The translations under genes and the position numbers were made by a program. A DNA stretch of 23,589 nucleotides from a virus: the UHGV virus genome UHGV-0074613. The stretch is one strand, 5' to 3'. Below the pieces are notes generated by a model. That model did not search any database and was not told the DNA's origin. It worked only from the letters and a program-made list of their open reading frames with translations. Of the stretch, positions 5,919 to 6,842 are shown in pieces. Every line of letters starts with the position of its first letter. Positions within the stretch are counted from its first letter, which is position 1.

Positions 5919-5948
5919 ACTATAGCTACTTTAAGTAGATAAATGCAA
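5919..5948 (-). promoter_or_regulatory. Putative leftward early promoter (PL-like) with embedded operator
   Basis: Minus strand: -35 TTGCAT (5943-5948), 18-bp spacer, -10 TATAGT (5919-5924). The 13-bp palindrome CTACTTTAAGTAG (5926-5938) lies in the spacer and matches the cI-cro operator at 12/13. Confidence 0.45.
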
Positions 5949-6011
5949 CAACAAAAAGTAGAAAAAATTATCTTTTTGGTTGTTTTTCTGACGCGAGGTA
6001 GGTTTTTTATG

Positions 6012-6036
6012 CGAAAAAAAACCGGCTTTCGCCGGT
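6012..6036 (-). terminator. Intrinsic terminator downstream of the repressor gene
   Basis: Minus-strand ACCGGCGAAAGCCGGU hairpin followed by U7-8, about 20 nt after the cI-like stop. Confidence 0.7.
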
Positions 6037-6053
6037 TATTTAAGCTGGGTTGG

Positions 6054-6773
6054 TTATCCAAACTCTATCATTTTAAGAGGTAAGCACCTGATAAGCTTGC
6101 CGAAAATGTATACTTCATTCATTTCATGTTCTTCTATGAAGAACGGCGGATAGTGCTCATTGTCTGATAGGACTGCCAGACGACGACCTTTAACTTTTTG
6201 TAGTCGTTTTACAAAGGTGCTGTCCTCGAAGTTGAACACGTAAACGCCATCGCCGCTAAATTGCTCCACCTTACTATCAATGAAGAGCAGATCCTTAGGG
6301 CACAACGTTGGCATCATACTGTCGCCATCAACGTTGATCATAACGATACCATCCAAGCTTCTCCGGCCAAACAATTCGAAAATCCTTTCTTCTGGTATTT
6401 CTATCGAGCTGACAATCGTTGGGAACGGTTGATTGATATATCCCGAACCGGCTGACGCATGCACATCCAATTGCTGAATTCTAACCGTCCCGGTAGCAGG
6501 CGCATCACCGCCATTAACGGGTACCCCGTAATCAAGATAAGCAGGGGATACGGCAAGCCTGTCTGCAATTCGAATCATCTTTTCATCTCTTGGTTTTGCA
6601 GTACCAAGAGTATAGCGTCGCGCCATCTCATATGAGACACCACTGAACTCTGACAATTCTTTAACTCCAATTGATTGCTCTTGGAGAGACTTGTTTAGCC
6701 TGTCGGCAAAGTCTTTGTATTTAGCATTTTCCACCATAAGTAGAAGATTAAGCGCACAAGGCATAGTTGTCAT
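6054..6773 (-). CDS. CI-like prophage repressor (HTH-XRE N-terminus + S24 LexA-like peptidase domain)
   Basis: HTH segment VKELSEFSGVSYEMARRYTLG; C-terminal GDSMMPTL (Ser) and FVKRLQK (Lys) dyad typical of S24 autocleaving repressors; divergent from a cro-like gene. True start may be the internal ATG at 6737 (MVENAKYKDF...). Confidence 0.85.
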   Translation of the reverse strand: MTTMPCALNLLLMVENAKYKDFADRLNKSLQEQSIGVKELSEFSGVSYEMARRYTLGTAKPRDEKMIRIADRLAVSPAYLDYGVPVNGGDAPATGTVRIQQLDVHASAGSGYINQPFPTIVSSIEIPEERIFELFGRRSLDGIVMINVDGDSMMPTLCPKDLLFIDSKVEQFSGDGVYVFNFEDSTFVKRLQKVKGRRLAVLSDNEHYPPFFIEEHEMNEVYIFGKLIRCLPLKMIEFG

Positions 6774-6842
6774 TTCTATTTTAAGTTGCTAATAATTGCT
6801 ACTATAAGTAGTATTGACGCAAGCTTAGTCACAGGAGAGAAC
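6731..6842. promoter_or_regulatory. Divergent cI/cro control region with three operator-like palindromes and putative PR
   Basis: CTACTATAAGTAG (6799-6811), CTATTTTAAGTTG (6776-6788), CCACCATAAGTAG (6731-6743). Putative PR -35 TTGCTA (6786-6791), 17-bp spacer, -10 TAGTAT (6809-6814), overlapping the first operator; SD AGGAGAG before the cro ATG. Confidence 0.5.

Follow-up and report, generated by a model that had tools for sequence, protein, structure and literature searches.

The question raised by this locus is what reads the 13-bp palindromes that stand on either side of a repressor gene in the viral genome UHGV-0074613 (one strand of 23,589 nucleotides, hereafter the window), and whether they form a genetic switch of the phage lambda kind. 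A sequence-only reading of this DNA had reported two perfect copies of a palindrome, one at the cI-cro switch and the other about 870 bp away in a putative leftward promoter (PL), together with two weaker copies, and had proposed a lambda-like arrangement of left and right operators (OL and OR). Our analysis supports this proposal through gene content, promoter geometry and comparative data. The palindromes are best read as the repressor operators of a lambda-type prophage immunity region, that is, of the lysis/lysogeny switch, with three OR and two OL sites; we put the probability of this reading at roughly 85%. As judged from sequence comparison, the region is a new immunity type of the standard lambdoid kind with the operator specificity CTAC-N5-GTAG.

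All four reported copies are present in the window with the sequences originally given. The two with a perfect CTAC-N5-GTAG core are OR1 (CTACTATAAGTAG, 6799-6811), which overlaps the spacer and the -10 hexamer of the putative rightward promoter (PR), and OL1 (CTACTTTAAGTAG, 5926-5938), which sits within the PL spacer, a single nucleotide short of the -10 hexamer; start to start they are 873 bp apart, in agreement with the earlier estimate. OR2 (CTATTTTAAGTTG, 6776-6788) overlaps the PR -35 hexamer and lies 2 bp from the -35 hexamer of the putative cI promoter (PRM), and an OR3-like site (CCACCATAAGTAG, 6731-6743) covers the ATG of the likely cI start (6737-6735), as had been noticed, and also the probable PRM start point. 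The description of a single OL site was incomplete: a second site with one core mismatch (OL2, CAACAAAAAGTAG, 5949-5961), overlooked at first, abuts the PL -35 hexamer exactly 23 bp from OL1. The proposed operator spacing of about 23 bp holds for the OR1-OR2 and OL1-OL2 pairs (23 bp each) and fails for OR2-OR3, which are 45 bp apart.

A scan of the whole 23.6 kb with CTACTWTAAGTAG, allowing up to 2 mismatches, found only four places (5926, 6731, 6776 and 6799) and no further copy. The 6 strand-matches at these places compare with 0.44 expected, and none of 100 shuffles attained 6. Exact CTAC-N5-GTAG cores occur twice (0.36 expected), both in the intergenic regions flanking the repressor gene; cores with 1 mismatch are not enriched across the window (6 against 4.75 expected), and it was this relaxed search that revealed OL2. 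A weight matrix built only from relatives whose CI is at most 82% identical, with the window itself excluded, ranked OL1 (21.6, the top score), OR1 (20.3), OR2 (15.9) and OR3 (15.4) first to fourth in the window and added two sites, OL2 (14.7, rank 6) and a candidate distal sixth site at the 3' end of cro, 293 bp from OR1 (CAACTTTTAGTTG, 7092-7104; 14.8, rank 5). A match inside cI (6191-6203), which recurs in relatives as CTACAAAAAGTAA, coincides with conserved RLQK codons and scores 6.2; it was set aside as a coding by-product.

The sites are conserved far beyond the window. Relatives were collected through the CI protein (7 loci in species genomes of Mixta, Pantoea, Rouxiella and Candidatus Phlomobacter, and 64 in IMG/VR) and E. 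coli prophages, that of Nissle 1917 included, were added, giving about 70 loci with CI identities of 63-100%. In every locus the three OR sites keep their offsets of -74, -51 and -6 from the cI ATG, and in every locus with enough sequence the OL region holds a pair of CTAC-N5-GTAG sites, spaced by exactly 23 bp and located 84-124 bp past the cI stop codon, with OL2 reading CTACTTTTTGTAG or ending in GTTG. Across the family, OL1 and OR1 are 867-881 bp apart. In information profiles computed from 60 distinct OL and 56 distinct OR sequences, conservation is confined to sharp islands over the outer 4+4 bases and the promoter hexamers, and the flanks become unrelated past about +10 of PL and past OR1 on the cro side. 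The view of the 13-bp palindrome as the shared unit stands for the outer CTAC and GTAG, which are fixed, and needs correcting for the central 5 bases, which vary among relatives (TTAAA, TTTAA, TTCAA, TTTGG, CAAAA, ATTAA, TTTTT, TTTCA and others). OR2 is weak in every relative, its CTAT half being invariant and never CTAC and the other half GTTG or GTAG, which fits a site filled by cooperativity. In relatives further removed, OR3 matches CTAC-N5-GTAG perfectly.

Each cluster sits on a conserved promoter. Putative PL (5948-5919, minus strand) has a -35 hexamer TTGCAT (5948-5943), an 18-bp spacer filled by OL1 and a -10 hexamer TATAGT (5924-5919), with a predicted start near 5912; both hexamer positions are conserved over the 60 distinct relatives, and the placement of the 5926-5938 copy in the PL spacer is borne out by them. 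Putative PR (6786-6814, plus strand) combines TTGCTA (6786-6791) and TAGTAT (6809-6814) across a 17-bp spacer. OR1 covers this spacer and the first 3 nt of the -10 hexamer, which as TAG[T/C]AT is retained in 55 of 56 relatives; the overlap of the 6799-6811 copy with the -10 had been called correctly. In the most distant clade PR has moved by 3 bp (TTGATT-17-CATTAT), which gives it the same layout as PL. The PR candidate offered by a promoter scan, TTGTCA-18-AATAAT, was rejected, its -10 hexamer being lost in Pantoea relatives, whereas TTGCWW-17-TAGYAT is retained. Putative PRM (6773-6745, minus strand) consists of ATGACA (6773-6768), a 17-bp spacer and TAATCT (6750-6745), with ATGAC kept in 55 and TAATCT in 48 of 56 distinct relatives. 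With the A of the cI ATG as the 8th nucleotide after the PRM -10 and no Shine-Dalgarno sequence in front of it, the cI mRNA is probably leaderless, as in lambda. OR2 is centred near -44 of PRM. In lambda the OR2 centre is at -42, and this similarity, together with the 2-bp distance from the PRM -35 hexamer, makes activation of PRM by OR2-bound repressor plausible.

The protein expected to read these sites is encoded between them. The cI-like gene (6054-6737, minus strand) specifies a 227-residue protein with an HTH_3 domain (Pfam, E 7e-5) and a Peptidase_S24 domain (E 2e-17) that also matches PHROG transcriptional repressor families. The self-cleavage set of LexA and CI is present as Ala96-Gly97, Ser140 (GDSM) and Lys177 (KRL); G138-D139-S140-M141 is invariant in six CI sequences, which include those of e14, Salfasec13b and Stx2_EH1846, and five of these also have the lysine. 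All 47 distinct relatives compared carry the same recognition helix, GVSYEMARRYTLGTAKPR. The gene is followed by an intrinsic terminator (6020-6037, minus strand), a stem AACCGGCGAAAGCCGGTT running from 6037 to 6020 and then a T run, the same hairpin being found in the E. coli Nissle locus, so that a repressor gene and its terminator do separate OL from OR as the sequence-only reading had described. Divergently, the cro-like gene (6843-7109, plus strand) encodes 88 residues with a YdaS-type helix-turn-helix (Pfam YdaS_toxin; PHROG 35, transcriptional repressor) whose putative recognition helix, SVQSVANWI, is nearly invariant in 44 distinct proteins; cro accompanies cI in every relative at matching identity and divergence.

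Operator specificity follows the repressor. Three more distant S24 repressors (e14 YmfK and those of Salmonella phage Salfasec13b and of Stx2_EH1846) have different recognition helices and different repeats shared by their OL and OR regions, namely TGTAYC-N5-GGTACA, ATACGC-AA-GCGTAT and AATCAAGTTAAT, respectively. Between the OL-like and OR-like copies of each lie 0.74-0.85 kb that hold only the repressor gene, which indicates that a spacing of about 0.9 kb is the usual compact arrangement; its presentation as a departure from the lambda layout does not hold up. The 2.4 kb between OL and OR of lambda reflects the insertion of rexAB. In Salfasec13b the PRM geometry also matches that of the window (ATGACG-17-TAAATT-7-ATG).

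The module also behaves as an exchangeable cassette. DNA homology of 83% to E. coli prophages extends from 5910, where PL is predicted to start, as far as 7143, a little beyond the ATG (7132) of a cII-like activator gene of the CP76 family (7132-7602, plus strand) that lies outside the immunity module proper, and on this alignment the 5910-7143 block is the classical extent of an exchangeable immunity cassette. The cII gene and the PL-distal genes are swapped independently of cI and cro, the identity of the cII-like protein being 87%, 39% or, where the gene is absent, nil. An O-like replication initiator gene (8012-8896) follows on the plus-strand side, and the rest of the window has late-gene, Q, RusA, lysis and terminase segments in common with mEp390 and Stx phages, which identifies the element as a lambdoid prophage. 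The region has the make-up of a lambdoid CI/Cro immunity region throughout: a repressor with helix-turn-helix and S24 domains, a small second repressor transcribed divergently from a shared intergenic control region, several partly symmetric OR operators overlapping PR and PRM, a cluster of the same sequence over the leftward promoter past cI, and an operator specificity that tracks the repressor from cassette to cassette.

The analysis itself establishes the sites with their significance, conservation and geometry, the families of the genes and the limits of the module; CI binding, cooperativity, PRM activation, the leaderless cI mRNA and any OL-OR looping are inferred from this layout. Dimers of the CI-like protein would recognise CTAC-N5-GTAG through the invariant helix-turn-helix, and strong OR1 and weak OR2 would be filled cooperatively, blocking PR and with it cro, the cII-like gene and the replication genes. 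Repressor bound at OR2 could activate transcription of cI from PRM, as in lambda, and OR3, lying on the PRM start and the cI start codon, would shut cI off at high repressor concentration or when bound by Cro, the YdaS-type Cro being expected at the same sites. The OL1/OL2 pair, which straddles the PL -35 hexamer and fills the spacer, would silence the early-left transcript. RecA-stimulated self-cleavage of the repressor (at Ala96-Gly97, with Ser140 and Lys177) would then lift repression and induce the prophage.

Several points weigh against reading the palindromes as CI operators, and they bear on which explanation should be preferred. Taken singly, OR2, OR3, OL2 and the 7092 site score no better than the best matches in shuffled sequence (mean best 11.3, up to 18.2), so that these four rest on conservation. 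The nearest deposited phage CIs, besides that of Phi06_2987 S, an E. coli phage fragment, are 38% identical and no solved structure matches (no sequence relative of CI at E 0.001 or better among solved structures). The shortness and AT-richness of the sites and the lack of enrichment of the one-mismatch core would suit a repeat that arose by chance or from the composition of AT-rich promoter DNA, or else a site recognised by a restriction-modification system or some other host protein. Such an origin is effectively refuted and we regard its probability as negligible: the full-motif count was reached in no shuffle, position and spacing are invariant over about 70 loci of several genera despite varying centres, the motif changes when the repressor helix changes, and the sites cluster at promoters and are not spread through the genome. 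It is harder to say which protein maintains them, since computation cannot separate CI, Cro or both as the source of site conservation. The palindromes could primarily be sites of the YdaS-type Cro, with CI binding something else or a longer or asymmetric site; Cro is present with every copy of the module, its putative helix is as conserved as that of CI, and weakly symmetric sites are bound by some lambdoid repressors (BAA2326; PMC5977221). We nevertheless hold it to be improbable that these are primarily Cro sites, because no other repeat is common to the OL and OR regions of the window and because OL must be repressed in the lysogen, where Cro is absent; in addition, the 23-bp pairs suit cooperative binding through the C-terminal domain of CI, a domain that Cro does not have. 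In the lambda paradigm both proteins use the same sites, so that this alternative mostly merges into the reading of the palindromes as repressor operators.

A further alternative concerns OR3 and touches the number of sites more than their nature. On this view the operators would be limited to the two perfect copies and the partner that each has at 23 bp, and 6731-6743 would be kept for its start-codon context or for a hairpin at the 5' end of the RNA. OR3 overlaps coding sequence, its right half being ATG GTR G, and its variants in the cI sense (CTAC..GTAG 20 times, CCAC..GTGG 17, CTAC..GTGG 18 and CCAC..GTAG never) are also those expected from RNA pairing, with U-A, C-G and U.G pairs and never C.A; moreover, a similar repeat, CTACCA..TGGTAG, encloses the start of the cII-like gene, and the 45-bp spacing to OR2 is unlike that of the 23-bp pairs. 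Set against this, all clades preserve both the N5 spacing, without exception, and the CTAC half that does not code, and the weight-matrix score is 15.4, fourth in the window; a 4-bp stem would be barely stable, and two mutational events would suffice to produce the variants seen. We therefore think it unlikely that OR3 should be struck from the operators. The position of the cI start adds a last reservation. An alternative in-frame ATG at 6773, inside the PRM -35 hexamer, would give a CI of 239 residues, and none of 25 distinct relatives has a stop in the cI frame over the 12 codons between it and the 6737 ATG (6738-6773, 36 nt, minus strand); the cI start at 6737, and with it the leaderless model, is consequently only probable. 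The other two frames of this stretch are full of stops, its peptide is not conserved and its substitutions have no third-position bias, and RefSeq annotates 239 residues in Nissle and 227 in another E. coli strain. A longer CI isoform may be made from read-through transcripts.

Read as an OL/OR switch, the region can be compared with known systems. With lambda it shares the divergent cI (helix-turn-helix and S24 self-cleavage) and cro, three OR sites, a cII gene after cro, neighbouring sites about 23-24 bp apart, a strong promoter-proximal site over PR and a weak middle site beside the PRM -35, a weak PRM with a probably leaderless cI mRNA, and a second operator cluster over PL. It differs in the site itself (13-bp CTAC-N5-GTAG against 17 bp in lambda), in a CI only about 26% identical to 933W/lambda-type CIs, in its YdaS-type Cro and CP76 (186-like) CII, and in the position of OR3, which lies 45 bp from OR2 on the PRM start, whereas that of lambda is in the PRM spacer. 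There are two OL sites, unlike the three of lambda; rexAB is absent, which leaves OL and OR 0.87 kb apart; and in place of an N gene PL is followed by a structured leader and a tRNA. A search for an N-type antiterminator as the first PL gene found no open reading frame (ORF) of at least 30 residues between PL and the tRNA, except frames overlapping PL or the tRNA, and the ORF that comes next after the tRNA falls in PHROG 13002, a family with no assigned function. An N-type antiterminator is needed for lambda-like early control, not for an immunity region.

Phage 933W, which has three OR sites and no OL3 (PMC5977221), is similar in its three OR and two OL sites and its compact immunity region holding cI only, and differs in an unrelated operator sequence and a CI 26% identical; the 933W repressor is reported to be non-cooperative at OR1 and OR2, whereas the strict 23-bp pairs and the weak OR2 of the window suggest cooperativity. 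The e14 element of E. coli K-12 (ymfK-ymfT-ymfL) has the same gene order of S24 repressor, small helix-turn-helix protein and YmfL/CII-like protein, a repeat shared by OL and OR at 0.74-0.81 kb and a terminator directly after the repressor gene, and in the E. coli relatives the gene that follows cro carries the RefSeq name 'YmfL family'. YmfK is, however, 29% identical in the C-terminal domain only and its repeat is different, and e14 is therefore a different immunity type. A P2/186-type switch, considered on account of the CP76-type CII, was excluded because the promoters are back-to-back divergent and CI carries an S24 domain.

Closest to the window are the prophage 3 region of E. coli Nissle 1917 and Escherichia phage Phi06_2987 S, the latter an unannotated fragment in the deposits, with CI 97% identical, OR identical and OL nearly identical; by these identities all three are of the same immunity type. 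They differ from the window in the PL leader, in the downstream genes (a zinc-finger protein and rdgC) and in the type of cII (39%). A Nissle phage repressor gene, 'pr', has been cloned as a 410-bp amplicon, with no operator data given (PMC5987069); this is too short for the 684-bp cI, so 'pr' is probably a different gene. No operator study of the immunity type of Nissle prophage 3 and Phi06_2987 S was found in the literature, a full-text search with four exact 13-mers returned only an irrelevant human-genetics paper, a paper on CI diversity in Stx phages contains no operator mapping for this CI type, and no description of CTAC-N5-GTAG specificity was found for any studied phage.

Some features may lie outside the lambda template. 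The arms of the 7092-7104 site are retained with seven different centres, only in relatives whose CI is at least 87% identical. Located at the cro/cII junction, this candidate operator may loop with OR over 293 bp, for which the flanking sites of 186 and OD of TP901-1 are analogues; a roadblock or control of a PRE-type promoter are other possibilities for it. OR3 may be at once a DNA operator and an RNA element at the 5' end of a leaderless cI mRNA, the open 12-codon upstream frame may yield the second CI isoform from read-through, PRE-type transcripts, and immunity may directly control a tRNA gene through PL, with a terminator in the leader and no N-type antiterminator. A switch of this sort, with a looping distal operator, a dual DNA/RNA OR3 with a second CI isoform and an immunity-controlled tRNA, seems to us rather doubtful.

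The tRNA in question, tRNA-Arg(UCU) (5666-5741, minus strand; ARAGORN and Rfam), is the first recognisable gene from PL. The leader that precedes it (5742-5913, minus strand, about 170 nt) is strongly structured (minimum free energy -65 kcal/mol, z = -5.3), with one hairpin at its 5' end, another that resembles a terminator (5829-5862, followed by a U tract at 5827-5823) and a long third one immediately ahead of the tRNA. Of 60 related loci, 10 have a tRNA gene no more than 2 kb from PL and oriented like it, examples being tRNA-Arg tct in L010-L012, L020, L022 and L064 and tRNA-Gly ccc in L044-L046 (at about 2864), where tRNA-Gly-CCC begins about 36 nt after the predicted PL start; a tRNA as first early-left product therefore recurs in this immunity group. 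In E. coli GDSC2BY4G (L001, 3543-3998) a gene of the ECs1072 family on the opposite strand is inserted between PL and tRNA-Arg, marking the PL-proximal region as a hotspot for cargo insertion. Another conserved PL leader, containing AGCGAACAGGCAGGACGCCCACGAAGTAGCCGCCGGTGGC, is found in L002 (about 2940-3005), L074 (about 4110-4170) and many IMG/VR loci, and is common to Nissle, e14 and many relatives whatever their immunity type. No Rfam family matches it, and when the Nissle locus was scanned permissively its PL leader gave no hit; it could be an antitermination-type or other regulatory RNA. At gathering thresholds an Rfam scan of the window returned only the tRNA and a distant int-alpA RNA motif (16277-16339, plus strand; 41.8 bits against a threshold of 35.8), which lies between the lysis and terminase regions just upstream of an ORF at 16361-16738.

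At the other end of the module, the junction of cro and the next gene (7114-7139) carries AACTACCAAAGGAAAA..ATGGTAGA, kept in nearly all relatives (L003-L073) whichever gene follows. Within it a 6-nt inverted repeat, CTACCA/TGGTAG, has the Shine-Dalgarno sequence between its arms and reaches the start codon of the next gene, its variants (CCACCA..TTGTGG and CTACCA..TGGTGG) are compatible with RNA pairing, and it coincides with the right-hand mosaic border of the immunity module (7143).

Mechanistically the switch is unsurprising, and the understanding of how such switches work is unchanged. What is now defined is an operator code, CTAC-N5-GTAG, with the promoter layout and the extent of the immunity type that uses it, a type that no studied phage appears to represent. 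The repressor and its operator form a compact orthogonal pair for synthetic circuits. The type is widespread in prophages of E. coli, the probiotic Nissle 1917 included, and of Pantoea, Mixta, Rouxiella and related bacteria; the operator code is an aid to their annotation, and with it superinfection immunity and hetero-immunity among these prophages become predictable.

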